DNA of 53,441 bases from Oscillospiraceae bacterium (GCA_045638565.1 JAZUBN010000021.1:1-53441), one strand, 5' to 3'. Counted from the first letter of the stretch, positions 68 to 50,153 are shown. Notes: a model not told the origin generated them from the letters alone. Numbers and translations are program-made.

Positions 68-116
68 AGCCTCCCTTGCCTAAAGGGAGGGGGACCACCG
101 AAGGTGGTGGAGGGAT
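68..116 (+). repeat. family-A structured intergenic repeat, copy A1 (CCTCCCT subtype)
   Basis: Hairpin 1 is CCTCCCTT-gccta-AAGGGAGG, hairpin 2 is ACCACC-gaa-GGTGGT, and the purine tail is GGAGGGAT. Nine other copies share this layout. Confidence 0.8.
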
Positions 117-128
117 ATATCCTCAATC

Positions 129-782
129 TTACAGCACCACATAAAACAGCACTGCAAAATACTGGAGAATCGTGCCGCCAAGCACGAAAAAGTGCCATAT
201 CGAGTGCATATATTTTTTGCGTATTGCGTAGAAGATGATGCCGACAGTGTATGCAAGACCGCCTGCCGCAAGAAGAATCATGCCGCCTTTTGCAAGGCTT
301 GCGATGAGCGGCTTTATAGCGAAAACAACCGCCCAGCCCATTGCGATATAGCATATCATAGAGAAAATCTTGAACTTTTCAAGGCTGACGATGTTGAGTA
401 TGACACCGATTATCGCCGCACCCCATACAACACCGAAAAGTGTCCACGCAATGGCAGGAGTTGTTTCACGAAGTGTTACAAGGGTGAAAGGGGTGTACGA
501 GCCTGCTATGAGCAGAAAGATGGAACAATGGTCAAAAACACGGAATACCGATTTGACCTTTCCGTCAGTAAACGAATGATAAAGGGCGGAAAATGTGTAA
601 AGAAGAATCATTGTTGCGCCGTAAATGGATGAGCTGACAACCTTCCATACATCGCCCTGAAGTGCGGAAAATACGATGAGAACAGCCATGCCGCCTGCTG
701 CGGCAAGAGCGCCTGTGCCGTGGGAGATAGAGTTTATAAGCTCTTCGGCAAGGGTGTAAACAGGTTTTTTGGATTTTTTCAT
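129..782 (-). CDS. trhA: hemolysin III / PAQR-family membrane protein (TrhA-like)
   Basis: 217 aa and multi-TM. Motifs NSISHGTGA, SALYHS, FDHCSIFLLIAGSYTPF and HSIWHFFVL are typical of the HlyIII family. RBS AAGGTG lies upstream of the ATG. Confidence 0.85.
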   Translation of the reverse strand: MKKSKKPVYTLAEELINSISHGTGALAAAGGMAVLIVFSALQGDVWKVVSSSIYGATMILLYTFSALYHSFTDGKVKSVFRVFDHCSIFLLIAGSYTPFTLVTLRETTPAIAWTLFGVVWGAAIIGVILNIVSLEKFKIFSMICYIAMGWAVVFAIKPLIASLAKGGMILLAAGGLAYTVGIIFYAIRKKYMHSIWHFFVLGGTILQYFAVLFYVVL

Positions 783-785
783 TGG

Positions 786-1226
786 TCACCTTAATTTCTT
801 GAAAAACTCGGTGAGAAGCTCTTTGCATTCATCCCCGAGAATGCCGCCAGTCACCTTTGGCTTGTGGTTGAAATTTTCGAAGAAAAGGTCGATAACGCCC
901 CCCACAGCGCCGCCTTTTTTGTCATATGCTCCGAAAAAGAGCGATTCTATCTTCGAATGAATGATTGCTCCTGCGCACATAGGACAAGGCTCGAGAGTGA
1001 CATACATATCGCAGCCTTCAAGCCTCCATGAAGACAAAGCGGAACAAGCCATGCTTATGGCGTTTATCTCGGCGTGACCGAGTGCTGTGTTGTTTCTTTC
1101 ACGGGTGTTGTGTCCCAGACCTATGATTTCGCCGTCTTTCACTATGACACAGCCCACAGGAACATCGCCTGAAAGGGCACATTTTTTCGCCTCTTCAATG
1201 GCGAGAGCCATATAATGTTCGTGCAT
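786..1226 (-). CDS. tadA: tRNA adenosine(34) deaminase
   Basis: 146 aa with cytidine/deoxycytidylate deaminase zinc motifs GHAEINAI and LEPCPMCAGAI. RBS GGAGGA is present. Confidence 0.92.
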   Translation of the reverse strand: MHEHYMALAIEEAKKCALSGDVPVGCVIVKDGEIIGLGHNTRERNNTALGHAEINAISMACSALSSWRLEGCDMYVTLEPCPMCAGAIIHSKIESLFFGAYDKKGGAVGGVIDLFFENFNHKPKVTGGILGDECKELLTEFFKKLR

Positions 1227-1292
1227 TTTGTCCTCCGCGCAGATTATACGAGAATTTTACCAAAGTAAATGACAAAAGTCAAGAAAAATGGC

Positions 1293-1321
1293 TTGAAAAA
1301 ATGCCCTATATAATGTATAAT
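1293..1321 (+). promoter_or_regulatory. candidate sigma-A promoter (TTGAAA-17-TATAAT)
   Basis: TTGAAA at 1293-1298, a 17-nt spacer, and TATAAT at 1316-1321. If active it would give gltX a leader of about 410 nt that contains the repeat mosaic. No experimental support. Confidence 0.35.
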
Positions 1322-1349
1322 TATTAAAATAGAATGGGTATCTATAAGC
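1316..1349 (+). repeat. 34-nt AT-rich direct repeat, copy 1
   Basis: tataattattaaaatagaatgggtatctataagc matches tataattattagaatagaatggagtattataggc at 1486-1519 at roughly 85 percent identity by eye, allowing one indel. The pair brackets the GC-rich module at 1375-1485. Confidence 0.7.
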
Positions 1350-1374
1350 AAATCTATAAAATAATTATACATTA

Positions 1375-1485
1375 TGGAGGGCCGAGCGCCCGACCGCGGC
1401 AAATGCCGTCGTGCCGAGCGGGAGGATTTACTCCGACCAGCGAGTATTAAATCGTGGGGCCCCTGCAAAACCTGTTTTGTGGGGA
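1375..1485. repeat. GC-rich structured module inserted in AT-rich spacer
   Basis: GGAGGGCCGAGCGCCCGACCGCGG...GGGGCCCCTGCAAAAC-ct-GTTTTGTGGGG. It shares the strings CGACCGCGG and CCGAGC with the insert at 1549-1628 and is bracketed by the 34-nt direct repeats. It contains no credible ORF. Confidence 0.55.
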
Positions 1486-1519
1486 TATAATTATTAGAAT
1501 AGAATGGAGTATTATAGGC
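1486..1519 (+). repeat. 34-nt AT-rich direct repeat, copy 2
   Basis: See copy 1 at 1316-1349. Confidence 0.7.
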
Positions 1520-1530
1520 TGATTCATATA

Positions 1531-1677
1531 AAGCCTTCCCCTTGAGGGTAGTGAAACGGCGACCGCGGTGTTGAATGACAACCCAGTGGGTTGTCAGACC
1601 CGCGGCGTGACCGAGCCGCAGCGAGACAGGTGTCAGCAAAGCTGACGGATGAGGTGTAGCCGTGTAACGGCGTTTAT
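1531..1677 (+). repeat. family-A repeat, copy A2, interrupted by an 80-nt nested insert (1549-1628)
   Basis: 1531-1548 is AAGCCTTCCCCTTGAGGG, the 5' part of the element. 1629-1677 is GGTGTCAGC-aaa-GCTGACGGATGAGGTGTAGCCG-tgtaa-CGGCGTTTAT, the 3' part. Intact copies have only GAA between these parts. The insert starts (G)GTAG, ends CCGCAGCGAGACA, and contains TGACAACCC-agt-GGGTTGTCA. Confidence 0.75.
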
Positions 1678-1735
1678 ATAATTACACCATTCCAAAATAT
1701 AGTTAAAAATCACTTCAGACGGAGGATAAAATATA

Positions 1736-3382
1736 ATGGACAACAACAAACTTGCCCAGCTTCTGTTCCCACACATCACTGTGGAAATGGACGAATATCT
1801 TGAAAAAATCTATCCAAAGCGTGACCTTCCGGAAGGCGCTTATGTAACACGCTTTGCCCCAAGCCCAACAGGCTTTATTCACATCGGCGGTCTTTTCACA
1901 GCCCTTGTAAATGAACGTCTTGCACATCAGTCGGGCGGTAAAATCTTCCTCAGAATCGAAGACACAGACAAGAAGAGAGAACAGGAAGACGGCATCAACG
2001 AAATCATCACAGGTCTTGCTGCTTTCGGCATCAACTTTGACGAAGGCAAGACTCTTGACGGCACAGAAAAGGGCAATTACGGCCCATATGTACAGAGCCA
2101 CAGAGCAGATATCTATCAGAGCTTCTGTAAGGCACTTGTTGTAAAGGGTTATGCATACCCTTGCTTCTGCACAGAAGAAGACCTTTCTGAAATCCGCAAG
2201 GTTCAGGAAGAAAAGAAGGTTCTCCCAGGCTATCATACAGAATATGCAAAGTGCAGAAACCTCACTTATGAAGAAATCGAAGAAAACATCAAGGCAGGCA
2301 AGCCTTATGTTGTACGTCTCAAGTCCCCGGGCAAAATCGGCGGCAGAGTCAAGTATAAGGACGTTGTCAAGGGCGATATCGAAATGGACGAAAACGTAGC
2401 AGATATCGTTCTCCTCAAGACAGACGGCATCCCAACATACCACTTCGCTCACGCTTGTGACGATACACTCATGGGCACAACACACGTTGTCCGTTCCGAT
2501 GAATGGGTACCATCTGTAAACATCCACCTTCAGCTCTTCTACTGCCTCGGCCTCAAGGCTCCAAAGTACTGCCACATCTCCCCAATCATGAAGGAAGACA
2601 ACGGCGGCAAGAGAAAGCTTTCCAAGCGTAAGGACCCTGAAGCAGCGGTAAGCTACTTCACAGAAGAAGGCTATCCAAAGGAAGCTGTGCTTGAATATCT
2701 CCTCACACTTGCAAACTCCCAGTACGAAGACTGGAGAAAGCAGAACAAGACAGCAGACCTTCACGATTATAAGTTCGCTATGAAGAATATGTCCAAGTCG
2801 GGCGCACTCTTTGACCTTGTAAAGCTCAACAACGTTTCGGGCGAAGTCATCTCCCGTTTCCCAGCTGAAAAGCTTTATGAATATGTTCTCGAATGGGCTA
2901 ATGAATTCGATAAGGAATTTGCTCAGAAGCTCACAGACAACAAGGATAAGGCTGTTACATTCTTCGGCGTTGACAGAAGCGGCAACAAGCCACGTAAGGA
3001 CATCACACAGTGGAAGGGTGTAGCTAAATATATGGAATACATCTTCTCCGATGTATTTGAATGTGAAGCTATCGAAAATATCGCAGCAGAAGACCAGAAG
3101 GCAGTTCTCGCCAAGTACGCAACAGTATTTGATGTAAATCATACAAAGGACGAATGGTTCGCTGCTATGAAGAGCATCTGCGAAGAGCTCGGCTTCTCTC
3201 CAGACGTTAAGGCTTATAAGGCTGACCCATCTGCATTCAAGGGCCATGTAGGTGATATCTCCACAATCGTCCGTGTTGCTCTCACAGGCAGAAAGAACAC
3301 ACCTGACCTTTATTCCATCATGGCTATCCTCGGCACAGATGAAATCAAGGCAAGACTTAACAAGTATATCGAAACTTTGTAA
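1736..3382 (+). CDS. gltX: glutamate--tRNA ligase (long, ~550-aa form)
   Basis: 548 aa. Class I motifs PSPTGFIHIGG (HIGH) and KLSKRK (KMSKS). RBS GGAGGA is present. Confidence 0.9.
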   Translation: MDNNKLAQLLFPHITVEMDEYLEKIYPKRDLPEGAYVTRFAPSPTGFIHIGGLFTALVNERLAHQSGGKIFLRIEDTDKKREQEDGINEIITGLAAFGINFDEGKTLDGTEKGNYGPYVQSHRADIYQSFCKALVVKGYAYPCFCTEEDLSEIRKVQEEKKVLPGYHTEYAKCRNLTYEEIEENIKAGKPYVVRLKSPGKIGGRVKYKDVVKGDIEMDENVADIVLLKTDGIPTYHFAHACDDTLMGTTHVVRSDEWVPSVNIHLQLFYCLGLKAPKYCHISPIMKEDNGGKRKLSKRKDPEAAVSYFTEEGYPKEAVLEYLLTLANSQYEDWRKQNKTADLHDYKFAMKNMSKSGALFDLVKLNNVSGEVISRFPAEKLYEYVLEWANEFDKEFAQKLTDNKDKAVTFFGVDRSGNKPRKDITQWKGVAKYMEYIFSDVFECEAIENIAAEDQKAVLAKYATVFDVNHTKDEWFAAMKSICEELGFSPDVKAYKADPSAFKGHVGDISTIVRVALTGRKNTPDLYSIMAILGTDEIKARLNKYIETL

Positions 3383-3470
3383 TACAACGAAAAATGCAGG
3401 GGCGGGTTTCCACGCCCGCCTGATAAATATAAAATCACATAATCCCATTTGATTTATACAGGAGTAAATA

Positions 3471-5150
3471 ATGGAAAATATTGAAAAGACAACAAACGAA
3501 GAAGTATTGTTTGAAGGCAACTTCATTCATGACTTCATTGATGAAGATCTTAAGGAAGGAAACTTCGACAGAGTTCAGACTCGTTTCCCACCTGAACCAA
3601 ACGGCTACCTTCATGTAGGCCACATCAAGGCTATCGCAGTTGACTTCACAACAGCAAAGAAGTACAACGGTATCTGCAATCTCCGCCTTGACGATACAAA
3701 CCCACAGAAGGAAGACGATGAATATGTAAACGCTATCATCGAAGATATCCGCTGGCTCGGCTTTGAACCGGACAATATCCTCTATGGCTCCAACTATTTT
3801 GACGACTGCTATGAAGCAGCTATCCGCCTTATCAAGAAGGGCAAGGCTTTCGTCTGCGACCTCAATGCTGAACAGATGAGAGAATACCGCGGCTCTCTCA
3901 CAGAGCCTGGCAAGGAAAGCCCATACCGCAACAGAACTGTTGAAGAAAACCTCGATCTCTTCGAAAGAATGAGAAAGGGTGAATTTGAGCCTGGTGAAAA
4001 GACACTCCGCGCAAAGATTGATATGGCATCCGGTAACGTAAATATGCGTGACCCTATCATCTACCGTATCATGAAGGTTCCACACGACCGCTGCGGCGAC
4101 AAGTGGTGCATCTACCCAATGTACGACTTCAACCACCCAATCTCCGATACAGTTGAAGGCGTTACACATTCCCTCTGCACACTTGAATTCGAAGACCACA
4201 GACCACTTTACGACTGGGTACTCAAGGAAGCTGAATTCGAAAAGCCATCCCGTCAGATCGAATTTGCTCGTCTCAACCTCAGCTACGCTCTTACAAGTAA
4301 GAGACGCTGCCTCGCTCTCGTAAACGGCGGCGCAGTAACAGGCTGGGATGATCCACGTATGGCAACAATCGCAGGTATGAGAAGACGCGGCTACCCAGCT
4401 CCAGCTCTCCTCGACTTCGTTTCCAAGGCAGGCCTTTCCAAGACATATTCTGTCGTTGATTACAGCCTCCTCGAATTCTGCGTACGTGACTATCTCAATA
4501 CAAATGCAGAACGTGCTATGGCAGTTCTCAAGCCTCTTAAGGTTGTTATCGAAAACTATCCTGAAGGAAAGACAGAAGAAGTTTCCGTTGAAATCAATCC
4601 AAATAAGCCTGAGCTTGGCTCCCGCAAGGTAACATTCTCCCGTGAAATCTACATCGAAGCTGATGACTTCACAGAAGTTCCACCAAAGGGCTACCACAGA
4701 CTTTCCCCAGGCAAGGAAGTTCGTCTCAAGGGCGGTTACTATATCACAGCTCAGAAGGCTGTTTACAACGAAAACGGCGACATCGACCACCTCATCTGCA
4801 CATATGACCCTGAAACAGCAGGCGGCACATCTCCTGACGGCCGCAAGGTAAAGGGCACAATCCACTGGGTTGACGCAAACAACTGCGTTGATGCTGAAGT
4901 TCGTCTTTACGACAGACTCTTCAAGAATCCTAACCCATCCGATGGCGAAGTATTCGATAACCTCAATCCTGATTCCCTCACAGTAGTTGAAAACGCAAAG
5001 GTTGAAAAGCATCTCCACGGTCACGCACCGCTCGATACTTTCCAGTTCCTCCGTCACGGCTACTTCACAGTTGACAAGGATTCCACAGCAGAGAAGATGG
5101 TCTTTAACAGAACAGTAACTCTCAAGGATTCCTGGGCAAAGCAGAAGTAA
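3471..5150 (+). CDS. glnS: glutamine--tRNA ligase
   Basis: 559 aa. RFPPEPNGYLHVGHIKA (HIGH region), LRLDDTNP, LTSKRR (KMSKS equivalent), and a GlnRS-type C-terminal beta-barrel region. Confidence 0.92.
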   Translation: MENIEKTTNEEVLFEGNFIHDFIDEDLKEGNFDRVQTRFPPEPNGYLHVGHIKAIAVDFTTAKKYNGICNLRLDDTNPQKEDDEYVNAIIEDIRWLGFEPDNILYGSNYFDDCYEAAIRLIKKGKAFVCDLNAEQMREYRGSLTEPGKESPYRNRTVEENLDLFERMRKGEFEPGEKTLRAKIDMASGNVNMRDPIIYRIMKVPHDRCGDKWCIYPMYDFNHPISDTVEGVTHSLCTLEFEDHRPLYDWVLKEAEFEKPSRQIEFARLNLSYALTSKRRCLALVNGGAVTGWDDPRMATIAGMRRRGYPAPALLDFVSKAGLSKTYSVVDYSLLEFCVRDYLNTNAERAMAVLKPLKVVIENYPEGKTEEVSVEINPNKPELGSRKVTFSREIYIEADDFTEVPPKGYHRLSPGKEVRLKGGYYITAQKAVYNENGDIDHLICTYDPETAGGTSPDGRKVKGTIHWVDANNCVDAEVRLYDRLFKNPNPSDGEVFDNLNPDSLTVVENAKVEKHLHGHAPLDTFQFLRHGYFTVDKDSTAEKMVFNRTVTLKDSWAKQK

Positions 5151-6268
5151 TGATTTATTTAGATAATTCAGCTACAACAAAGGTACTCGACTGCGCGCTT
5201 AATGCCGCAGTCGATGCCATGACAGAAAACTTCGGCAATCCTGCCGCAGTTCATTCCTTCGGCAAGAAGGCAAATGACATATTGGAAAATGCCCGTAAGG
5301 ACATTATGGCGGCGCTTAATGTGAAGAAGGGTACTCTCGTCTTTACATCGGGCGGCACAGAAAGCATCAACTGGGCGATTTCCTTTGCCGCAGACAAAAA
5401 CAAGCACAAGGGCAAACATATCGTGTCGACAAAAATTGAGCACGCCGCAACACTTGAAACTCTCAAGGCTCTCACAATGAAGGGTTATGAAGTAACTCTC
5501 GTCGAGCCTGAGCGTGACGGCAGCGTGTCGATTGATAAGATAAAATCTGCCATCAGAGAAGATACAATCCTGCTGACACTTATGGCGGTCTGCAACGAAA
5601 CAGGCGCAGTTTTGCCTTATCTCGAAGCGGCAAAATATATGAAGCAGGTCAATAAGGATGCTTTCGTACACATTGACGGGGTGCAGGGCTTTATGAAGAT
5701 TGATATGCCTCTTGATAATGTGGATTTCCTCTCCATTTCCGCCCATAAGATAGGTGGTGTCAAGGGAATTGGCGCTCTCTATATCAAAGATGGCGTTAAG
5801 ATTTCCCCAATGCTTCACGGCGGCTATCAGGATATGGGACTTCGCTCGGGCACACAGGCTGTTCCTCAGATGGCGGCTTTCGGCGCAGCGGCGAAATATC
5901 ACGCAGAGCATTTTGCCGAAGGCACAGCACATATGGATGAAGTCAGAAGATACTGCATCGAGCGCCTCAATGAAATCGAAGGCTCGACAGTTGCAGTTAG
6001 CGAAAACCAGGCGCCTCACGTTGTAAACGTAGGTTTCAAAAAGGGCAGAAGCGAAGTCATCATCCGCGTTCTTTCCGATAAGGGAATCTATGTTTCGGGC
6101 GGCTCTGCCTGCGCCAAGGGCAAGAAAAGCCATGTGCTTTTAGCAATGAACAGAGATCCGAAGGCCATCGATTCTTCTTTAAGAATCAGCCTTTCGGAAG
6201 AAAATACAAAGGAAGAGATTGACATTTTCATCGACACTCTCAAAATGGCGATGAAGATGTTCAGGTAA
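5150..6268 (+). CDS. cysteine desulfurase (class V aminotransferase, likely ThiI partner, NifZ/IscS-like)
   Basis: 372 aa. IYLDNSATT, PLP-lysine context SAHKIGGVKGIGALY, and active-site loop SGGSACA. The start overlaps the glnS stop (TAATG). Confidence 0.88.
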   Translation: MIYLDNSATTKVLDCALNAAVDAMTENFGNPAAVHSFGKKANDILENARKDIMAALNVKKGTLVFTSGGTESINWAISFAADKNKHKGKHIVSTKIEHAATLETLKALTMKGYEVTLVEPERDGSVSIDKIKSAIREDTILLTLMAVCNETGAVLPYLEAAKYMKQVNKDAFVHIDGVQGFMKIDMPLDNVDFLSISAHKIGGVKGIGALYIKDGVKISPMLHGGYQDMGLRSGTQAVPQMAAFGAAAKYHAEHFAEGTAHMDEVRRYCIERLNEIEGSTVAVSENQAPHVVNVGFKKGRSEVIIRVLSDKGIYVSGGSACAKGKKSHVLLAMNRDPKAIDSSLRISLSEENTKEEIDIFIDTLKMAMKMFR

Positions 6269-6272
6269 AAAT

Positions 6273-7442: not shown

Positions 7443-7448
7443 TTTTAT

Positions 7449-7499
7449 GCCTTCCCCGGTGGGGGAAGGGGGACCGCTTGCGGTGGATGAGGCGTAACC
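7449..7499 (+). repeat. family-A repeat, copy A3
   Basis: GCCTTCCCC-ggtg-GGGGAAGG, ACCG-cttg-CGGT, tail GGATGAGGCG. It begins 6 nt after the thiI stop. Confidence 0.8.
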
Positions 7500-7506
7500 A
7501 ATCTGC

Positions 7507-7537
7507 CGTAGGGACCGACGTCCTCGGTGGTCCGCAG
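7507..7537 (+). repeat. family-B REP-like element
   Basis: CGTAGGGACCGACG-tcct-CGGTGGTCCGCAG. It is nearly identical to 28745-28775 and is followed by the small hairpin GGCAAAC-gaa-GTTTGTCC. Confidence 0.8.
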
Positions 7538-7607
7538 GCAAACGAAGTTTGTCCTTTCGATAAATCACAATCCCATATAAATATAATCAAGAAAGGCGAA
7601 AATCACC

Positions 7608-8858: not shown

Positions 8859-8920
8859 TATAATATATTGTAAGGGCGGGCTATGTCCCGCCCCTGTGAT
8901 TATAAGCGTATCCTATTTAT

Positions 8921-8988
8921 AAGCCTTCCCCTCGAGGGGAAGGGGGACCGCTTGCGGTGGATGAGGTGTAGACCGAAGGTCGTTTTAT
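8921..8988 (+). repeat. family-A repeat, copy A4
   Basis: AAGCCTTCCCC-tcga-GGGGAAGG, ACCG-cttg-CGGT, GGATGAGGTGTAG, GACC-gaa-GGTC, GTTTTAT. It is preceded by the hairpin GGGCGGG-ctatgt-CCCGCCC at 8874-8893. Confidence 0.8.
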
Positions 8989-9048
8989 CAAATGCATCGC
9001 AGATACATTAATGTTCCTAAGGAACAATTCATTTATAAACTATAACTT

Positions 9049-9077: not shown

Positions 9078-9098
9078 CTCAGAACAGGAGGGCTATTC

Positions 9099-9782: not shown

Positions 9783-9784
9783 CT

Positions 9785-11329: not shown

Positions 11330-11334
11330 AGCAG

Positions 11335-11402
11335 AGCCTTCCCCTTGAGGGGAAGGTGTCACACTAAGTGTGACGGATGAGGTGCAGCCAAAGGCGTTTT
11401 AT
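11335..11402 (+). repeat. family-A repeat, copy A5
   Basis: AGCCTTCCCC-ttga-GGGGAAGG, GTCACAC-taa-GTGTGAC, GGATGAGGTGCAG, GCC-aaa-GGC, GTTTTAT. It begins 5 nt after the cls stop and lies between cls and the kinase gene. Confidence 0.8.
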
Positions 11403-13219: not shown

Positions 13220-13309
13220 GGTAGGGGCGAGCATTGCTCGTCCGTATTTGCAGGGACCGGCGTCTTCGGCAGTCCGCAGAAAAAGCAGGGGACACTGACG
13301 AATGTCCCC
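13220..13309 (+). repeat. three tandem family-B-like hairpin units
   Basis: GGTAGGGGCGAGCA-tt-GCTCGTCC (13220-13244), TGCAGGGACCGGCG-tctt-CGGCAGTCCGCAG (13249-13279) and GCAGGGGACA-ctgacgaa-TGTCCCC (13285-13309), all in the same orientation. Confidence 0.75.
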
Positions 13310-20163: not shown

Positions 20164-21489
20164 ATGGGAAAAATTAGAGTTGTACATTATGTCAACCAGT
20201 TCTTCGCAGGTATTGGTGGCGAAGAAAAGGCTGACCAGGTAGCGTTCAAGCAGGACGGTACTATGCCTATCGGTTCTCAGATCGAAAAGGCAATGCAGGC
20301 TATTAACGCAGATGTAGAAATCGTTGGTACAATCGTATGCGGCGACTCCTACTTCAATGAAAATCTCGAGAAGGCTAAGGCTGACATTCTCGAAATGGTA
20401 AAGAGCTATGAACCAGACCTCTTCATTGCAGGTCCAGCATTTAACGCAGGTCGTTACGGTGTTGCTTGTGGTACTATCACAGTAGAAGTTCAGGAACAGC
20501 TCAACATTCCTGTTCTCACAGGTATGTATAAGGAAAACCCAGGTGCTGATATGTACAAGACAAAGGTATATATCGTTCCTACAAAGGACTCCGCAGCTGG
20601 TGCTCGTGACGCTATCAAGAAGATGGCTCCTCTCGCTGTTAAGCTCGCAACAGGCCAGGAAATCCTCGCTTCTTGCGTAGATAACTATATGCCAAACGGT
20701 ATCCGTAAGAACTTCTTCGAAACAAAGCGTGGTTCTGAACGTGCTGTTGAAATGATGATCAAGAAGCTCGCTGGTAAGGAATTTGTTACAGAATTCCCAA
20801 TGCCTGACTTCGACCGTGTAGATCCAAACCCAGCTGTTAAGGATATGTCCAAGGCTCGTGTTGCTCTCGTTACATCCGGTGGTGTTGTTCCAAAGGGTAA
20901 CCCAGACCGTATCGAATCCTCTTCTGCTTCCAAGTACGGCGAATACTCCATCGCAGAATTCGACGATCTCACAGAAGAAACACACGAAACAGCTCACGGT
21001 GGTTACGACCCAGTTTACTGTAACCAGGACTCCGACCGCGTTCTTCCAGTTGACGTTCTTCGTGAAATGGAAAAGGCTGGCCGTATCGGTAAGCTCCACG
21101 AATACTTCTACACAACAACAGGTAACGGTACTGCTGTTCTTAACTCTGTTGCATTTGCTAAGGAATACTCCCAGAAGCTCGTTGCAGCAGGCGTAGACGC
21201 TGTAGTTCTCACTTCCACCTGAGGCACATGTACAAGATGCGGTGCATCTATGGTTAAGGAAATCGAACGCGCTGGTATCCCAGTTGTTCACATCTGCACA
21301 GTTACACCAATCTCCATGACAGTTGGTGCTAACAGAATCGTTCCAGCTATTGCTATCCCTCATCCACTCGGTAACCCAGCTCTCTCTATGGAAGAAGAAA
21401 AGGTTATCCGTCGTAAGATTGTTGAAACTGCTCTTCAGGCTCTCGAAACAGAAGTTGACAAGCAGACAATCTTCGAAGTTAAGTATTAA
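20164..21489 (+). CDS. grdB: glycine reductase selenoprotein B (Sec at codon 353, UGA 21220-21222)
   Basis: Track ORFs 20164-21222 and 21250-21489 are in the same frame. The junction reads VVLTST-UGA-GTCTRCGASMVKE, the canonical GrdB selenocysteine motif. RBS AAGGAGG. Confidence 0.93.
21235..21249 (+). promoter_or_regulatory. candidate SECIS apical hairpin for grdB
   Basis: AGATGC-GGT-GCATCT is a 6-bp stem with G and U in the loop, beginning 13 nt after the UGA. This spacing and loop type match bacterial SECIS elements. I could only see a weak lower stem. Confidence 0.55.
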
Positions 21490-28673: not shown

Positions 28674-28703
28674 TTCTTCACGACTTACATAATGGATAAT
28701 ATT

Positions 28704-28734
28704 AAGGACTCTCCGTAAGGAGAGTCCTTTTTGT
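28704..28734 (+). terminator. rho-independent terminator after nfnB
   Basis: AAGGACTCTCC-gtaa-GGAGAGTCCTT followed by TTTTG. Confidence 0.85.
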
Positions 28735-28744
28735 GTATTTAATC

Positions 28745-28775
28745 TGTAGGGACCGACGTCCTCGGCGGTCCGCAG
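28745..28775 (+). repeat. family-B REP-like element
   Basis: TGTAGGGACCGACG-tcct-CGGCGGTCCGCAG. Confidence 0.8.
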
Positions 28776-28790
28776 AATTTCTTAACTAAA

Positions 28791-28819
28791 TGTAGGGTGC
28801 GGCGCCCTCGACGCACCGC
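28791..28819 (+). repeat. family-B REP-like element
   Basis: TGTAGGGTGCG-gcgccctcga-CGCACCGC. Confidence 0.8.
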
Positions 28820-28833
28820 TTATTTAATACATA

Positions 28834-28861
28834 CAAAAAGGACACCCTTGTGGATGTCCTT
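28834..28861 (-). terminator. terminator of the minus-strand methyltransferase gene
   Basis: On the minus strand this reads AAGGACA-tccacaaggg-TGTCCTT followed by TTTTTG. Confidence 0.7.
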
Positions 28862-28870
28862 AATTTTATT

Positions 28871-29629: not shown

Positions 29630-29651
29630 CGAAAAGCTTACCTTTCTGAAA

Positions 29652-29702
29652 TGTAGGGGAGGCGTTTCGCCTCCCGCGGGCGGGGTGACCCCGCACCTAC
29701 AG
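29652..29702. repeat. pair of family-B units in opposite orientation sharing CCGCGG
   Basis: The forward unit is TGTAGGGGAGGCG-ttt-CGCCTCCCGCGG. The reverse complement of 29674-29702 reads CTGTAGGTGCGGGG-tca-CCCCGCCCGCGG. The pair therefore has TGTAGG...CCTACA ends. Confidence 0.75.
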
Positions 29703-29725
29703 TATTTATATGCATATGTTATTAA

Positions 29726-29758
29726 CACAAAAAAGACCGCAGAAATCCCGCGGTCTTT
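29726..29758 (-). terminator. terminator after the pxp operon / zinc-ribbon gene
   Basis: On the minus strand this reads AAAGACCGC-gggatttct-GCGGTCTTTTTTG. Confidence 0.75.
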
Positions 29759-29761
29759 GAT

Positions 29762-32585: not shown

Positions 32586-32621
32586 GATATTTCTCCTTTT
32601 CAAGGTATTTATTATGACTTT

Positions 32622-32650
32622 ATTGTATCACAAACGCATCAAATGTTCAA
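32622..32650 (-). promoter_or_regulatory. candidate pxp operon promoter (TTGAAC-17-TACAAT on the minus strand)
   Basis: The reverse complement shows TTGAAC (32650-32645), a 17-nt spacer, and TACAAT (32627-32622). Confidence 0.5.
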
Positions 32651-32657
32651 TAGAAAA

Positions 32658-32682
32658 TGTAGGGGCGACCATTGGTCGTCCG
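32658..32682 (+). repeat. family-B REP-like element
   Basis: TGTAGGGGCGACCA-tt-GGTCGTCCG. Identical in core to 42961-42985. It lies in an intergenic region transcribed only from the minus strand. Confidence 0.8.
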
Positions 32683-32694
32683 AAATATAAATTG

Positions 32695-32720
32695 AAAAAG
32701 GCACCCGAAACGGATGCCTT
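32695..32720 (-). terminator. terminator of mscL
   Basis: On the minus strand this reads AAGGCATCCG-ttt-CGGGTGCCTTTTTC. Confidence 0.75.
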
Positions 32721-32731
32721 TATGTATTAAA

Positions 32732-35571: not shown

Positions 35572-35600
35572 ATAAAAATCTCTTCCATTTCCCACATCCT

Positions 35601-35651
35601 GCCTCCCCTTGTCAGGGGAGGGGGACCATCGGAACTATGGTGGAAGGGTAG
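35601..35651 (+). repeat. family-A repeat, copy A6 (CCTCCCC subtype)
   Basis: GCCTCCCC-ttgtca-GGGGAGG, ACCAT-cggaact-ATGGT, tail GGAAGGGTAG. Confidence 0.75.
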
Positions 35652-37182: not shown

Positions 37183-37187
37183 AAAAT

Positions 37188-40940: not shown

Positions 40941-40955
40941 ACTTAATCGCTCCTC

Positions 40956-41003
40956 GCCTCCCTATGATGAGGGAGGGGGGCCGCACTGCGGTGGAGGGAG
41001 AGA
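40956..41003 (+). repeat. family-A repeat, copy A7 (CCTCCCT subtype)
   Basis: GCCTCCCT-atgatg-AGGGAGG, CCGC-act-GCGG, tail GGAGGGAGAG. It begins 15 nt after the permease stop. Confidence 0.8.
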
Positions 41004-41056
41004 TAGTATCCCTTTAATATACTCCAAAATTTATCACTAAACCGGAGGAAATATAA

Positions 41057-42916: not shown

Positions 42917-42921
42917 AGTAA

Positions 42922-42950
42922 AAAAGACCATCCGAAATGGATGGTCTTTT
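42922..42950. terminator. bidirectional terminator between convergent genes
   Basis: AAAAGACCATCC-gaaa-TGGATGGTCTTTT. Confidence 0.8.
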
Positions 42951-42960
42951 AATTTTATAT

Positions 42961-42988
42961 TGTAGGGGCGACCATTGGTCGTCCGCGG
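42961..42988 (+). repeat. family-B REP-like element
   Basis: TGTAGGGGCGACCA-tt-GGTCGTCCGCGG. Confidence 0.8.
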
Positions 42989-43004
42989 GAGATTCGTGAG
43001 TATG

Positions 43005-43769
43005 TTAGATTCTGCCGACAGGAGCAAGATATACAACGAATTCTTCTTCGCCGTCGATTTCACAGATAGCGTCAACCTTCTGCTGATCGTAAGCGGCGAT
43101 GCCGCAAGTGCCGCAGCCGATAGCTTCACAAGCGAGGTAGAGATTCTGGCAGACATGACCAACATCAATAAGAACAACCTTCTGTGCGTGTGTTGGGTAT
43201 CTCCATTCGGAGCGGTACATAACTGCGCTCCAGAAGAATGTAACAGCACAGCGGCCTACGAAAATCTGCTTGTTTGCAGATGCGCCGATAACATCTTCCA
43301 TATCGTCGCCGTATTCTCTTACGAGAAGAAGCTTGTGTTCTTCTGGGAGATAGCGGTATACAGCGCGCTTGAGACCTTCAACATTCATACAAGCGAGATA
43401 TGTTTCAAATGGATGACGTGCGCCTGCAGATGGAACAGTACGGAGTGTAGCTGTCTTGCCAGGGCGGTAATCACGGATGCCCTGTGTATTGAAAAGGAGG
43501 TAAGAAAGCTCTTCAAGAGTGATGCTTTCCTTCTTGAAAAGTCTGTTGGACTTTCTTTCAACGAAAGCACGTGTGAGATCATTGTGCTTGAGAGCGCACT
43601 TTTCAGGAGCAGGAAGGTCAACGATTTCGCCGTTTGGGTCGTAAGGCTTTACAAGTGGTGGCTGTGGCTTGCCGAGAGACTGGTCGGATTTAACATGGTC
43701 TGTCCAGTCGTGGTCCTTGAGATAATAACGCAGTTCCTTAGGGTCGAGTTCTCTTAATTGTTCCTTCAT
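43005..43769 (-). CDS. SagB/ThcOx-type nitroreductase-family dehydrogenase
   Basis: 254 aa from ATG 43769 (RBS AAGAGG). ...RKSNRLF...RTVPSAGARHPFETY... is typical of SagB-type proteins. Confidence 0.72.
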   Translation of the reverse strand: MKEQLRELDPKELRYYLKDHDWTDHVKSDQSLGKPQPPLVKPYDPNGEIVDLPAPEKCALKHNDLTRAFVERKSNRLFKKESITLEELSYLLFNTQGIRDYRPGKTATLRTVPSAGARHPFETYLACMNVEGLKRAVYRYLPEEHKLLLVREYGDDMEDVIGASANKQIFVGRCAVTFFWSAVMYRSEWRYPTHAQKVVLIDVGHVCQNLYLACEAIGCGTCGIAAYDQQKVDAICEIDGEEEFVVYLAPVGRI

Positions 43770-43874
43770 TGTGAGTACCTCTTTCTTTAGTTTTTGTTTA
43801 TAATATAATATTATAACATAATGGCGCAAAATACAAGAGGAAAATTGAGAAAATGGATTACTGTTGCCATAAAA

Positions 43875-43905
43875 TGTAGGGTACGGCGCCCTCGATGTGC
43901 CGCAG
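43875..43905 (+). repeat. family-B REP-like element
   Basis: TGTAGGGTAC-ggcgccctcgat-GTGCCGCAG. The stem contains a T:G position. It lies in a minus-only transcribed spacer. Confidence 0.75.
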
Positions 43906-43928
43906 CTATTTATTAATTTTTAGCTATA

Positions 43929-43957
43929 ACAAAAAGGACGGTATTTCTACCGTCCTT
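43929..43957 (-). terminator. terminator after the guaB-HAD operon
   Basis: On the minus strand this reads AAGGACGGTA-gaaa-TACCGTCCTTTTTG. Confidence 0.8.
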
Positions 43958-43961
43958 AATT

Positions 43962-44614
43962 TTATTTAAGAATAAAATCTTTAAGCTCACCTGCATCTTT
44001 TGCAAGGATAACGTGAGGATAAGCCTCAAGCTCTTCCTTACTGCCGTAGCCGTAAAGCACGCCTGCGCAGTCGAGACCAAGAAGCTCGGCCGCTTCCATA
44101 TCGTGATGCTTGTCACCAACCATAAGGATTTTTGAAATATCCTTTTCCTCGATATTTTCAAGCACATAACGCATAACAGCCACCTTGCTGTTGCGCTCTT
44201 CGCCGACAGATGCGCCGCCCGCAAATGTGAAATATTCGGAAATGCCGAAATGCTTGATTATATCGTGGGCAAAATGCTCAGGCTTGCTTGTGCAAAGGCA
44301 GATTTTAATGCCATTTTCGTGCATAGTCTTGAGCAAATCTTCGATGCCGTCGTAAAGACGGTTTTCAAACTTGCCGATGCGGTCATATCGTTCTCTGTAG
44401 AGGGCGACAGCCTTGTGGGAAGTTTCTTCATCGAAGCCGAAAGTTTCGCGGCAGGACCAGAGCAGAGGAGGACCGATTATGCCGCTGAAAAGCTCTTCAT
44501 CCCAGACTTTGCCAGGGAAAAGAGTTTCAAGAGCATAGTCAAAGCATTTTCTTATGCCGATGCCCGATTCTGTCAGTGTGCCGTCGAGATCAAATAAAAC
44601 AGTTGAATATTTCA

Positions 44615-44615
<1 letters not shown>
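43962..44615 (-). CDS. HAD-family hydrolase (phosphoglycolate phosphatase-like)
   Basis: 217 aa. Motif I VLFDLDGTL and motif IV MVGDKHHD. The start overlaps the guaB stop (TAATG). Confidence 0.8.
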
Positions 44616-46099
<1,484 letters not shown>

Positions 46100-46127
46100 T
46101 TAGTTTATTTGACTTATTATTCCCATA

Positions 46128-46156
46128 AATATAGCACAATTTAAACTTAATGTCAA
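46128..46156 (-). promoter_or_regulatory. candidate guaB promoter (TTGACA-17-TATATT, TG extended -10)
   Basis: The reverse complement shows TTGACA (46156-46151), a 17-nt spacer ending in TGc, and TATATT (46133-46128). Confidence 0.55.
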
Positions 46157-46223
46157 CAAAAAATCACAAAATTTTCCGATGAAATAGCTGTAAAAATATG
46201 CTATAATATTAGTATGATACTGA

Positions 46224-46278
46224 AGCCTTTCCCCATAGGGGAAGGGGGACCACCTCTGGTGGTGGATGAGGCGTAATC
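46224..46278 (+). repeat. family-A repeat, copy A8
   Basis: AGCCTTTCCCC-ata-GGGGAAGG, ACCACC-tct-GGTGGT, tail GGATGAGGCG. It lies in the divergent guaB/ogg spacer. Confidence 0.8.
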
Positions 46279-46359
46279 ATTCTTAAAATTGTATGTCATT
46301 CTGAACGAATGTGAAGAATCTCATACGCTTACTTATAACTTAACTTACACGAGGTGCTT

Positions 46360-47175
46360 ATGAAGATTATTGAGCATAAAAATTACATAGAAATAAAGGA
46401 TATCGAGCGTTTTGCCCCGAAACACACATTCGAATGCGGTCAGTGTTTCCGCTGGTTTGAAAAGGACGGAAAGTTTGAAGGGGTTGCCATGGGGAAGAAG
46501 CTGACCGTCTGGGCAGATGAAAATGCCCTGTATATGACATCGACACAAGCCGAGTTTGAAAGCATCTGGCGAAAGTATTTCGACCTTGACCGAAGCTATG
46601 AAAATATTGCAAAAGCTTTCAATGGCGATGAGTTTTTCGAAAAGGCTGTCGAATACGGCCTCGGCCTTCGCCTTCTGAAGCAGGACCCTTGGGAGGCCTT
46701 GTGCTCCTTTATCATTTCCCAGTGCAACAATATTTCACGCATACAGAAAATCGTTGCCACCTTATGCGAAAACTTTGGCGAGAAAATCGAGGGGGGATAT
46801 GCCTTCCCGACTGCCGAAAGAATAGCTCAGCTCGAGCTTTCTGACCTTGATATTCTGCGCAGCGGATACCGTGCAAAATATATCCTGAATGCGGCAAAAG
46901 CCGTTGCAAACGGGGAGATTTCTTTTGAAAAGCTGGAATCCATGCCGACAGATGAGGCACGTAAATACATAATGAGCCTTAATGGCGTGGGCAGAAAGGT
47001 CGCCGACTGCTTCCTGCTTTTCGGTATGGCAAAGTATGACGCTTTCCCTGTGGACACATGGATGAAAAAGGCGAAAGACCACTACGATATCAAAAATTAC
47101 GGCGCACACTTCGGCGAATTCGCCGGCATCGCACAGCAGTATATCTTCTATTACGCACGAAGCCAGAAAATATAA
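46360..47175 (+). CDS. ogg: HhH-GPD DNA glycosylase, Ogg-type (8-oxoguanine DNA glycosylase/lyase)
   Basis: 271 aa. HhH-GPD region LNGVGRKVADCFLLFG...FPVDTW with a lysine in the hairpin. The N-terminal OGG_N-like FECGQCFRW is present. Confidence 0.7.
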   Translation: MKIIEHKNYIEIKDIERFAPKHTFECGQCFRWFEKDGKFEGVAMGKKLTVWADENALYMTSTQAEFESIWRKYFDLDRSYENIAKAFNGDEFFEKAVEYGLGLRLLKQDPWEALCSFIISQCNNISRIQKIVATLCENFGEKIEGGYAFPTAERIAQLELSDLDILRSGYRAKYILNAAKAVANGEISFEKLESMPTDEARKYIMSLNGVGRKVADCFLLFGMAKYDAFPVDTWMKKAKDHYDIKNYGAHFGEFAGIAQQYIFYYARSQKI

Positions 47176-47213
47176 TTATGCAATGGCATTATGCTCGTCC
47201 GCACAATGCTTAT

Positions 47214-48050
47214 TTATGCCTTCTTTTTAAGTACAGAAATTGTTCTTACAGTCTTATAACCAAGTGACTTATAAAGTCCGATAGCTCTTTCATTTATCGA
47301 AACAACTTCCAGCTCAGCAAAGCCTCTTTCTGACATAAGAGCACGGTTTGTAGCAAAAATTGCAAGCTGACGACCAAAGCCAAGATCCTGAGCTTCAGGA
47401 AGCACGCAGAGATTTTCAATATGGTTGCCCATTTCGATAGTTACAGCTGCGATAGGCTTGTCCTGAGAGTTGATGGCAAGGAATGTCTCACTTTCAAACA
47501 TTTCATCACGGTTGCCGTTAGGGATGATTTTGTATGGCTCAGCGCCGATTGTCTTGCGCATATCATAGAAAGCCTCGCCTAAAAGCTCGTAGTAGCTTTC
47601 ATAATACTTGTCTTCGTAAGGCTCGAAAAGTGTATTAGGTGTTGGCAGAAGCTCATCATTATACACCATAGTGTGTGTGGAAATCCAAGGAAGGAAGCCG
47701 ATTTTGCCGCAGAAATAGATTGCTGCAAGGTCGTCTGCGAGAATGCGGCATTCGTAGGAATCACAGGAGTATCTCTCCTTTGCAAGACGGGAAATGCTGT
47801 GCCATAAAGCTGTGCCGATACCCTGACGACGTACAGATTTGTCAACAACGATGCCTACGTCAATGCGCTTGCCCATTGCGAAAGGCTGGAAAAAGCCGAA
47901 AGCCACGATTTCCTTGTTTACTTCGTAAACGAAAACTCTGCCTTCGTTGTGGGCGATTATATCTTCAATATTGAGAAGGATGTCCTTGGCGTTGTCAAGG
48001 GCAATCTTTTTAACTGTTTCAAGATGTTCCTGCTTAAAAAGTTTAACCAT
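47214..48050 (-). CDS. GNAT-family N-acetyltransferase (two acetyltransferase-like halves)
   Basis: 278 aa from ATG 48050 (RBS GGAGGT). RRQGIGTALW and QDLGFGRQL are acetyl-CoA binding motifs. Confidence 0.72.
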   Translation of the reverse strand: MVKLFKQEHLETVKKIALDNAKDILLNIEDIIAHNEGRVFVYEVNKEIVAFGFFQPFAMGKRIDVGIVVDKSVRRQGIGTALWHSISRLAKERYSCDSYECRILADDLAAIYFCGKIGFLPWISTHTMVYNDELLPTPNTLFEPYEDKYYESYYELLGEAFYDMRKTIGAEPYKIIPNGNRDEMFESETFLAINSQDKPIAAVTIEMGNHIENLCVLPEAQDLGFGRQLAIFATNRALMSERGFAELEVVSINERAIGLYKSLGYKTVRTISVLKKKA

Positions 48051-48203
48051 ATTACCTCCGAAGAGCACTTTTCTGTGCCCTATAAATATACATTATAATT
48101 ATAACACAAAATATTTGAAATTTCAATAAATTGACACCACTTTAACGCAGTTGAAAAGCTATATATAATATGGTATAATAAGTTAAAATAAAATGAAATT
48201 TAT

Positions 48204-48232
48204 TGTAGGGGACGGCGCACTCGACGTCCCGG
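48204..48232 (+). repeat. family-B REP-like element
   Basis: TGTAGGGGACG-gcgcactcga-CGTCCCGG. Confidence 0.8.
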
Positions 48233-48279
48233 GTTATCAATAGCGAAATTAATAATTTATCATACAAAGGAGAACTACT

Positions 48280-48924
48280 ATGAAGATACTCATCACAGGT
48301 TTTGAACCATTCGGCGGCGAAAGCATCAATCCATCATGGGAAGCTGTAAAGCTCCTTCCAGATTCCATCGACGGTCACGAAGTTGTAAGAAAAATGCTCC
48401 CTTGCGTATTTGTCAAGGCAGGCGACGTGCTTGATGCACTTATCGAAGAACATAAGCCTGATTTTGTTTTCTGCGTAGGTCACGCAGGCGGCAGAGCAAA
48501 TCTCACTGTCGAAAAGGTTGGCATCAATCTTATGGACGGCAGAATTGCCGACAACGAAGGCTATCAGCCTGTCGACGAGCCAATCAAGGCTGATGGCGAA
48601 ACAGCATACTTCTCCAATCTTCCTGTCAAGGGCGTTGTAAACGCAATCCGTGAAGCAGGCATTCCTGCTTCTGTTTCCTATACAGCAGGTACATACGTAT
48701 GCAACTATATTCTCTATACAACAATGTATCTCATCAATAAGAAGTACCCAAATATCAAGGGTGGCTTTATGCACATCCCATTTGCTCCTGAACAGGCTGT
48801 AACAAAGTCCCCAAGCACACCAACAATGCCTATCCCAATGATCGCAGACGGCATCAAGGCAGCGGCTAAGTTTATCCTTACAAACAGCGAAGAACTCAAG
48901 GTAAACGAAGGCACAGAACACTAA
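48280..48924 (+). CDS. pcp: pyroglutamyl-peptidase I
   Basis: 214 aa. KILITGFEPFGGESINPSWEA, and Cys/His in GTYVCNY...MHIP. Confidence 0.92.
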   Translation: MKILITGFEPFGGESINPSWEAVKLLPDSIDGHEVVRKMLPCVFVKAGDVLDALIEEHKPDFVFCVGHAGGRANLTVEKVGINLMDGRIADNEGYQPVDEPIKADGETAYFSNLPVKGVVNAIREAGIPASVSYTAGTYVCNYILYTTMYLINKKYPNIKGGFMHIPFAPEQAVTKSPSTPTMPIPMIADGIKAAAKFILTNSEELKVNEGTEH

Positions 48925-48934
48925 TTCAAATATA

Positions 48935-49000
48935 AAGCCTTCCCCTTGAGGGGAAGGTGTTAGCAAAGCTGACGGATGAGGTGTAGCCGAAGGCGTTTAT
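48935..49000 (+). repeat. family-A repeat, copy A9
   Basis: AAGCCTTCCCC-ttga-GGGGAAGG, GTTAGC-aaa-GCTGAC, GGATGAGGTGTAG, GCC-gaa-GGC, GTTTAT. It begins 10 nt after the pcp stop. Confidence 0.8.
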
Positions 49001-49029
49001 TAAATAGTGCCACAGGCACCTTACGTCAA

Positions 49030-49055
49030 TGTAGGGGAGCCGCTTGCTGCTCCCG
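49030..49055 (+). repeat. family-B REP-like element
   Basis: TGTAGGGGAGC-cgcttgct-GCTCCCG. It lies 30 nt after copy A9, the same A-then-B arrangement as at 7449-7537. Confidence 0.8.
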
Positions 49056-49090
49056 AAACATCATAATCCTACCTCAAAAGGAGAATAAAT

Positions 49091-49744
49091 ATGAAAAAAA
49101 TCGTTGCTGTAAATACAAGCCCGCGCACAGGCTGGAATACATCCACTCTTGTAAATGAAGCGGCAAAGGGCGCACAGAATGCAGGGGCTGAAGTCGTGGT
49201 TTTCGACCTCTATAAAATGGAAAAGTTCACGGGCTGTATCTCCTGCTTCGGCTGTAAGCTCGCGCCAAACGAAGGCAAGTGTATTTGCCAGGATGGTCTT
49301 ACACCAATCCTCGACGCAATCAGAGAGGCTGACGGTCTCATCATCGGCACACCAAACTATCTCAGCAATGTTTCTGCCGGCTTCCACGCTCTACACGAGC
49401 GCCTTTACTTCCAGTATGTCACATACCAGAAGGAAAATCCAAGCTATCCACATCGCAAAATCCCTGTGCTTTTCATTATGACAAGCGGCGCAGGCGAAGA
49501 TGCATATACACCTGAGCGTTACGGCCGCCTTGTCGATTCATACAAGCGCACTCTCGGTATGGTAGGCCCTACAAAGGCTCTCATCAGCGGCAACGCATAT
49601 CAGGTGCCTGATTACAGCAAGTACAACTGGACTCTCTTTGACCCTGAAGCAAAGAAGCAGCATTTTGACACAGTATTCCCACAGCACAAGCAGCAGGCTT
49701 TTGAATTAGGTGCTGAAATGGTAAATACACCTTGGGAGGCATAG
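49091..49744 (+). CDS. flavodoxin-family / NAD(P)H-dependent FMN oxidoreductase
   Basis: 217 aa. IVAVNTSPR..., the Cys cluster CISCFGCK...CIC, and GLIIGTPNY. Confidence 0.7.
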   Translation: MKKIVAVNTSPRTGWNTSTLVNEAAKGAQNAGAEVVVFDLYKMEKFTGCISCFGCKLAPNEGKCICQDGLTPILDAIREADGLIIGTPNYLSNVSAGFHALHERLYFQYVTYQKENPSYPHRKIPVLFIMTSGAGEDAYTPERYGRLVDSYKRTLGMVGPTKALISGNAYQVPDYSKYNWTLFDPEAKKQHFDTVFPQHKQQAFELGAEMVNTPWEA

Positions 49745-49745
49745 T

Positions 49746-50090
49746 ATGTTATCACCGGTTTACATAGCCGCAGGAGTGTTGGTTTTTGCGGCATTCGCAG
49801 TCTTTCAGCATTGGACTCTTAAAAATGGGCTTACAAGAAGCATCAGAAATATGCCACTCGTGTTTGCCCTCGTCGCTGTGTTTATGAGCCTTATGATTTA
49901 TTCGGGCGCATTCGGCGGCGATAAGGCGGCTCTCGGTTTTACAGAAAAGGAGCTTTACGGTCTTTCTTTCGGCATGATTTCCGCCTGCGCTCTCTTTGGC
50001 GATTTCCTCGGCTGGATAGTCTTCAAAATGACAAATAAACAGCCAAAGCCACAGCCTAAAAAGAAAAACAATAAAAAGAAGAAGAAATAA
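49746..50090 (+). CDS. small hypothetical membrane protein with poly-Lys tail
   Basis: 114 aa with 3-4 hydrophobic helices. C-terminus KQPKPQPKKKNNKKKKK. The ATG lies 2 nt after the previous stop, with GGAGG inside the end of the upstream gene. Confidence 0.55.
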   Translation: MLSPVYIAAGVLVFAAFAVFQHWTLKNGLTRSIRNMPLVFALVAVFMSLMIYSGAFGGDKAALGFTEKELYGLSFGMISACALFGDFLGWIVFKMTNKQPKPQPKKKNNKKKKK

Positions 50091-50104
50091 CGCACCAAGC
50101 TCTC

Positions 50105-50153
50105 TTGCCTCCCTCAGACGAGGGAGGTGGCACGCACAGCGTGACGGAGGGAG
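50105..50153 (+). repeat. family-A repeat, copy A10 (CCTCCCT subtype)
   Basis: GCCTCCCT-cagacg-AGGGAGG, CACGC-aca-GCGTG, tail GGAGGGAGTG. Confidence 0.8.

Follow-up and report, generated by a model that had tools for sequence, protein, structure and literature searches.

The 53,441-nucleotide stretch of DNA analysed here (the window; Oscillospiraceae bacterium, GCA_045638565.1 JAZUBN010000021.1:1-53441) carries two families of short hairpin repeats, A and B, which with a single exception read in the same orientation on the + strand. Family B is a family of GTAG-headed repetitive extragenic palindromes (REPs), and family A is a widespread, unclassified two-hairpin element separate from it. An earlier note on this DNA had claimed that the polarity of both families follows the DNA strand and not the local mRNA. 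Our analysis supports independence from the local mRNA for B and not for A, and we propose that the polarity they share may have two different causes.

Thirteen genes of the window lie on the - strand and about 39-40 on the + strand (75% on +), matching the 39 of 52 counted earlier. The gene map was checked by Pfam for each ambiguous pair of overlapping frames, and it is recovered in two-fold validation by a codon log-odds gene model, which replaced a logistic gene-caller on positional composition (90% accuracy, too poor). The spacers fall into the classes described before: three are flanked by - genes on both sides (29632-29761, 32604-32731 and 43830-43961), two are convergent (28674-28870 and 42917-43004) and three are divergent (1227-1735, 46100-46353 and 48069-48279). 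Both repeat families were recovered by repeat finding plus direct motif listing, and were compared with some 350 loci, each no longer than 8 kb, that three pattern scans gathered from other Clostridia. The highest-GC bin of the gene model was apparently mis-trained, and most tests use loci below 0.58-0.62 G+C. The window belongs to a fragmentary metagenome assembly of a species represented by short metagenome contigs; the contig that carries its closest homologue cluster (94% identity) is 910 nt long, and a search for exact matches to three window proteins, made for contig extension, found none.

A B unit consists of GTAGGG joined directly to a hairpin (stem 8-9 bp, loop 3-4 nt) that ends in CCG; in the window the stems carry at most one mismatch. 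This structure lies within the REP definition given in PMC6006769, that is GTAG or GTGG 0-2 nt 5' of the hairpin foot (0 nt in B), a stem of 7-20 bp and a loop of 2-5 nt. The 53 kb hold 14 units, all of them intergenic, with the heads GTAGGG (10 units), GCAGGG (3) and GTAGGT (1, the reverse partner of an inverted pair). A scan written for this motif gives 10 GTAGG-hairpins for the + strand and a single one, at 29678-29702, for the - strand, and GTAG is by far the commonest 4-mer ahead of GG-hairpins in the window, with 10 on + and 0 on - that start with GG. Thirteen of the 14 units read on +; the one-strand pattern noted earlier stands, while its tally of 12 of 13 grows by the GCAGGG-headed unit at 3396. 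Counted over the window and all loci, the non-Watson-Crick positions of the stems, read on the GTAG strand, are 259 times G.T and 18 times A.C, so the hairpin folds on the GTAG-bearing strand only. We also observe that the hairpin is stable on one strand only whether as DNA or as sense RNA.

The B-like unit with the GCAGGG head lies past the gltX stop (3396-3421, +), and single + units follow at 7508-7535 (GTAGGGACCGACGTCCTCGGTGGTCCGC) and, between two + genes, at 49031-49056. Three head-to-tail units (beginning at 13221, 13250 and 13285) fill 13221-13309 (+) between two + genes, and two more (28746 and 28792) fill 28746-28819 (+) between convergent terminators (28704-28729 on + and 28861-28838 on -). 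The sole inverted pair stands in a minus-only spacer past a - terminator (29758-29732); its forward partner is at 29653-29677 (+), and its other partner is, as first reported, the only reverse unit of the window (29678-29702, GTAGGTGCGGGGTCACCCCGCCCGC on the - strand). Two + singletons are antisense to both of their - neighbours: that at 32659-32682 (GTAGGGGCGACCATTGGTCGTCCG), flanked by the mscL terminator (32721-32697) and by a promoter-like site on -, and that at 43876-43903, past a - terminator (43957-43934). A 24-mer identical to the unit at 32659 lies in a convergent spacer just past a bidirectional terminator (42962-42985, +), and one further unit lies in a divergent spacer (48205-48232, +). 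Inverted-pair organisation, as in bacterial interspersed mosaic elements (BIMEs) or REP doublets forming hairpins (REPINs), is thus seen in one of the 10 clusters, the remainder being single or head-to-tail. The window shows that Clostridial REPs can occur as one-strand singletons, not inverted pairs. Over distances of 0.5-8 kb in other Clostridia, the orientations of all B units taken together are random (229:211).

Genes resembling those of REP-associated tyrosine transposases (RAYTs) tie family B to the REPs. A tblastn search with a RAYT sequence, which served only as a lead, gave matches in seven of the comparison loci. Intact frames in L175 (2312-2824, -), L287 (1522-2025, +) and L353 (7484-7963, +) match NCBIfam NF047646 REP_Tyr_transpos with E of 1e-17 to 1e-19, below the curated cutoff, and the Pfam Y1_Tnp matches are marginal; broken RAYT-like copies lie in L149, L140, L172 and L225. 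The frames hold two inverted GTAGGG hairpins in frame, about 160 nt apart and at conserved protein positions. The sequence of these hairpins varies from gene to gene, and L175, L287 and L353 each have their own cognate pair. The window 24-mer of 32659 and 42962 occurs identically inside or adjoining the frames of L149, L140 and L172. The earlier reading of the units as GTAG-hairpins of the RAYT type is supported by RAYT-like genes in related genomes that carry an identical hairpin; tblastn found no RAYT gene in the 53-kb window.

This 24-nt REP, GTAGGGGCGA(C/G)CATTG(C/G)TCGTCCG (32659-32682, 42962-42985), recurs in more than 118 stretches (loci L128-L245) from many genera of Oscillospiraceae, Acutalibacteraceae, Faecousia and Ruminococcus, and from bins labelled Lachnospiraceae and Coriobacteriaceae. 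Such wide sharing points to horizontal spread or strong constraint. A metagenome scan with a second B subfamily returned only 6 short loci. The GTAG REP survey papers, text-searched for these names, make no mention of REPs in Clostridia or Firmicutes. The elements are a known kind of repeat, REPs, in a phylum outside the coverage of these surveys, together with the unclassified repeat A.

Five of the 10 B clusters (28746, 29653, 32659, 42962 and 43876) lie past strong intrinsic terminators, in the intervals that separate transcription units, and from this location they are probably outside any mRNA. Since half of the clusters lie past terminators, and since both neighbours of 32659 and of 43876, as checked by Pfam, run antisense to these units, B in the window is not dictated by the local mRNA. 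Only these two singletons truly contradict gene direction. The one-strand rule claimed for the minus-only spacers applies to the B units at 32659 and 43876; the pair at 29653 carries no information on it, and none of the 10 A copies lies in such a spacer. If orientation were random, the nine informative B clusters would all fall on one named strand with p = 0.002, and under a model in which orientation is tied to the genes (78% sense, as measured elsewhere) the B pattern of the window has p = 0.0023. As a separate observation, the strong terminators at 28700-28865, 42920-42950 and 43934-43957 share an AAGGAC...GTCCTT or AAAGAC...GTCTTT stem motif, and REPs lie 10-30 nt past their T-runs.

Family A is built differently. 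Its first hairpin has the form (G)CCTYCCC - loop - GGGRAGG and is followed by a second hairpin of free sequence and by a conserved single-stranded tail, GGATGAGG or GGAGGG. In copies from this genus, GTAG, a mini-hairpin of 3-4 bp and a T-run often come after it. At 8959-8985, 11375-11400, 48974-49000 and 1647-1675 the arrangement reads GGATGAGGTGTAG, mini-hairpin, GTTT(T)AT, so that a GTAG-headed mini-hairpin with a T-run closes A. Repeat finding and motif listing agree with the first report that all 10 copies are on +, an outcome that random orientation gives with p = 0.001.

Seven A copies lie 5-63 nt past the stops of + genes. They occupy 7448-7500 (6 nt past the stop), 8922-8980 (63 nt past, with the GTAG, mini-hairpin and T-run tail), 11335-11395 (5 nt), 35600-35650 (a variant between a stop and the terminator of that gene), 40953-41010 (a GGAGGG-tail variant, 14 nt), 48936-48995 (11 nt past the pcp stop) and 50104-50153 (a variant, about 15 nt). 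Two copies stand in divergent spacers, each 3' of a TATAAT box, at 1531-1670, where an insert of about 80 nt splits hairpin 1, and at 46224-46275. The last copy, at the window edge (68-125), has a GGAGGG tail and is of the variant form CCTCCCT/AGGGAGG; a + terminator (30-58) stands on one side of it and a - gene, with its 3' end, on the other. The informative copies are thus sense after + genes and the others are divergent or at the edge, and the claim that polarity is set by the DNA strand is not supported for A. We attribute the + polarity of A to its sense position right after genes in this genus and to the 75% of genes on +; the polarity would then simply mirror gene-strand bias.

Other genomes show how far A reaches. 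One pattern scan returned at least 120 stretches, whose source genomes span 34-70% G+C and several phyla, and we note that the hosts (loci L008-L127 and L246-L358) include Bifidobacterium, Selenomonadaceae and Christensenellales. Hairpin 1 and the GGATGAGG tail are almost invariant across loci; the second hairpin takes 237 distinct segments in 325 copies, and 201 of these segments fold (at least 5 bp). In tandem spacers the generic copies are sense in 20 cases and antisense in 14. Likewise, the TGTAG-tail subtype gives 31 and 28, the pure clusters 47 and 39, and the comparison with the majority of non-adjacent genes 81:78; in the other genomes A orientation shows no association with strand skew. 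In three close relatives A is mostly sense (6:1). Across other genomes A has no general orientation rule. As a general explanation, we rejected a terminator or 3'-untranslated-region RNA element, A being orientation-neutral in other genomes. A search of plasmid and phage collections with A gave no match.

For B, we tentatively favour a role of replication. REP hairpins are of the kind that RAYTs handle as single-stranded DNA, and the single and head-to-tail units of the window have their GTAG strand on +, whatever the neighbouring genes do. This is the mechanism put forward in the earlier note, here restricted to B and not taken as general for B in other Clostridia. The two transposons that serve as its model, IS608 and ISDra2, excise and insert at the lagging-strand template, according to PMC3333891 and PMC6006769. 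That + has the leading-strand sequence in the window is only suggested, by the 75% of genes on + and by AT skew. If it does, the parental + strand is the lagging-strand template; the strand geometry reasoned out before is correct on this point and matches IS608 and ISDra2 as quoted in PMC3333891.

Skew was examined in two ways. Within the window, the skew at 4-fold sites was split into a part due to gene direction and a part due to the strand, and the strand part of AT skew is +0.09 (confidence interval, CI, 0.03 to 0.14). In the other loci the proxy was the difference in 4-fold GC skew between + and - genes (+ minus -). By this measure B is oriented along the orientation-corrected G-rich strand in 36 loci against 16, and a stricter threshold gives 28 against 11. 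A logistic fit for B gives a skew term of 0.75 (CI 0.12-1.75) and a term for the adjacent gene of 0.40, which is not significant. The association of skew with B orientation is suggestive only and not robust, and our verdict does not rest on it.

A preference linked to genes, aided by chance, could give the same picture. Single REPs, and A in this genus, would prefer the sense orientation, 75% of genes are on +, and the remaining + copies, namely the two B units in antisense and the six copies at convergent, divergent or edge sites, would be on + by luck. The preference could be selected through the mRNA, whose 3' hairpin would form in sense alone because of its G.U pairs, or it could come from insertion into the non-template strand exposed during transcription. 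Counts over pure clusters, in which all units have one orientation (singletons or head-to-tail arrays), speak for it: in tandem spacers B is sense in 69 and antisense in 20, and in close relatives B is sense to antisense 13:3, alongside the 6:1 of A. Furthermore, two antisense among six tandem clusters in the window is the expected rate. PMC3733652 places REPs mainly downstream of coding regions and regards them as likely RNA elements, and R-loops are named in Ton-Hoang 2012 (PMC3333891) as another possible source of single-stranded DNA.

On other points the same explanation fits less well. It assigns the full window pattern p of about 0.002 for B alone; what remains to be explained by luck, both antisense units in minus spacers and three convergent or divergent clusters on +, has p of about 0.008, and A adds a further residual of 0.125. 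Of the B clusters, half are probably outside any transcript. Pairs of pure B clusters within one locus are concordant 49 times and discordant 21 times; in runs of genes with the same direction such pairs are concordant 24:0, where 78% sense would give about 16:8 (p about 0.001). In L146 (JAFSBG010000015.1, 8001-16000; from the close relative RGIG2985, about 91% protein identity), six B units all lie on -, antisense to nine co-directional + genes, a block that includes pyrD, pyrF, ftsY and rph and in which the single A copy is sense. The 24:0 concordance, this antisense run and the window p = 0.0023 together make a purely independent gene-linked rule insufficient. We consider sense preference plus luck possible but rather doubtful as the cause of the window pattern.

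Replication coupling, which we prefer for B in the window, has a number of observations against it. The strand part of 4-fold GC skew in the window is +0.015 (CI -0.09 to 0.12), indistinguishable from 0. The association with skew in the other loci falls to 30:14 when genes overlapping elements are left out, and leaving out adjacent genes brings it down to 13:8 or 15:11; the proxy itself fails to agree with the gene majority (29 of 58), and with so many tests run, p of about 0.01-0.02 is not strong. In convergent and divergent spacers B does not follow the gene majority of its locus (26:21), the gene majority being a weak proxy for the leading strand there, and the proxy-free comparison of cluster pairs involving such spacers is 12 concordant to 9 discordant. 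Pairs in gene runs of opposite direction are 0:2, and B flips with the genes in L331, from a close relative, and in L170. In RGIG2985, B is sense in the + block L003 and antisense in the + block L146; for one replication rule to fit both, L146 would have to be on the lagging strand. The gene calls of L146, L331 and L170 were confirmed by Pfam. Finally, the window was chosen because of its pattern. The flips with the genes and the lack of coherence in convergent and divergent spacers are also what an effect of gene direction predicts, and these results are incompatible with a universal replication rule for B.

A third possibility is that copies spread locally, each REP seeding nearby copies on its own strand, whether a single-stranded intermediate hops locally or the template is switched, so that runs of several to tens of kb arise without relation to the replichore. 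Such runs of one orientation do exist with either relation to the genes, as L003 (sense) and L146 (antisense) of one relative show, and the 24:0 concordance in same-direction runs agrees with it. Members of one B subfamily recur 10-20 kb apart in the window. Turnover is fast: an orthologous spacer holds A and B in the window (7443-7607) and four head-to-tail B units in L003 (5870-6065; RGIG2985), and scans for both families detected neither in its SIG471 copy (L001:5826-6036), differences that imply rapid change of repeat content between species. On the other side, the window units belong to several hairpin subfamilies, each dispersed over many genera. Clusters in convergent and divergent spacers of one 8-kb locus lack coherence (12:9), and the presence of A on the same strand is left unexplained. 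We regard local spread as an unlikely account.

The repeats might instead be a functional polar DNA signal read by a translocase or a RecBCD/AddAB-type enzyme, like the FtsK orienting polar sequences (KOPS), the SpoIIIE recognition sequences (SRS) or Chi, a function that the earlier note had considered conceivable. Only the one-strand arrangement of the window and the G-rich top strand argue for this. In other genomes, 8-kb loci contain these A and B sequences in either orientation, B units less than 150 nt apart are mostly inverted (135 against 88 direct), A is without any polarity there, and the hairpin sequences vary freely with compensation and offer no fixed recognition word. A signal of this type is very improbable.

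Together, the indirect tests of replication coupling in other genomes are mixed and mostly negative. The data are consistent with strand-coherent REPs being present in some regions or lineages, and the strand coherence of B in the window is probably real. Replication coupling is the leading candidate for its cause, which we advance tentatively and at less than an even expectation; we infer the direction of replication, the mechanism of insertion and the activity of the elements. The stronger proposal, that singleton and head-to-tail REPs of this lineage lie almost only on the lagging-strand template, their orientation acting as a compass that flips at the origin and terminus, is more speculative still.

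No Rfam covariance model matches either repeat family, even when E values as high as 5 are allowed. The only Rfam hits in the window, both at gathering scores, are a selenocysteine insertion sequence (SECIS) element and a T-box. The SECIS element (21223-21260) lies past the in-frame UGA of grdB, and the T-box leader (52667-52900) lies ahead of tyrS.

How REPs spread is unsettled. RAYT cleaves REPs in vitro, and to our knowledge REP transposition in cells has not been seen. If the orientation of single REPs does depend on the replichore, it would be evidence within genomes of single-stranded insertion at forks, as for IS608, and would extend the replication coupling of IS200/IS605 elements to RAYT/REP systems. 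REP orientation could then mark replication direction in draft genomes that have no usable GC skew, and gene-strand bias, not RNA function, would then account for the sense orientation that REPs favour in many genomes. If the polarity is linked to genes instead, this would support a role at the RNA level or coupled to transcription. Either way, one-strand singleton REPs exist in Clostridia, and the co-resident A behaves unlike REPs.

Among known systems, A resembles the structured repeats of the MITE or REP-like kind in having two hairpins, the second hypervariable with compensating changes. It differs from the named families in having no Rfam match, in its conserved single-stranded GGATGAGG tail and in its spread over several phyla.

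The IS200/IS605 elements IS608 and ISDra2 share with B a single 'top' strand on which a Y1 HUH enzyme acts on a hairpin with a 5' guide tetranucleotide, and their published replication-linked orientation bias is the model for the B polarity proposed here. B units differ in being hairpins of 25-28 nt without a transposase and without left and right ends, and their replichore-dependent orientation is a proposal for which indirect tests in other genomes are mixed. The REP papers describe positions relative to genes and the dimer types head-to-head (HH), tail-to-tail (TT) and head-to-tail (HT), and a text search of PMC3733652, PMC8266576, PMC3333891, PMC3116915 and PMC6006769 for strand and replication terms found no replichore bias of REP orientation.

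The closest likeness is to the Proteobacterial GTAG REP/BIME/REPIN systems and their RAYTs (Nunvar 2010, PMC2817692; Ton-Hoang 2012, PMC3333891; Di Nocera 2013, PMC3733652). B shares with them the 5' GTAG, the GC-rich hairpin of 8-9 bp with a loop of 3-4 nt, the intergenic position, a copy number that is high within the window (14 units in 53 kb) and the several hairpin subfamilies per genome; in other Clostridia inverted pairs are common, and a Y1/HUH RAYT-like gene is tied to an identical hairpin. It differs in that the B units of the window are single or head-to-tail on one strand, with one inverted pair in 10 clusters, that the RAYT-like gene of related genomes has its REP pair within the frame and not flanking it, and that identical B 24-mers are found across genera. 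HH and TT dimers predominate in many families according to Di Nocera 2013, whereas HT arrays and singletons prevail in the window. Inverted pairs are, by the same paper (PMC3733652), typical of REPs and not obligatory, single and HT units being recognised as well, and the tandem arrays at 13221-13309 and 28746-28819 resemble the HT dimers described there.

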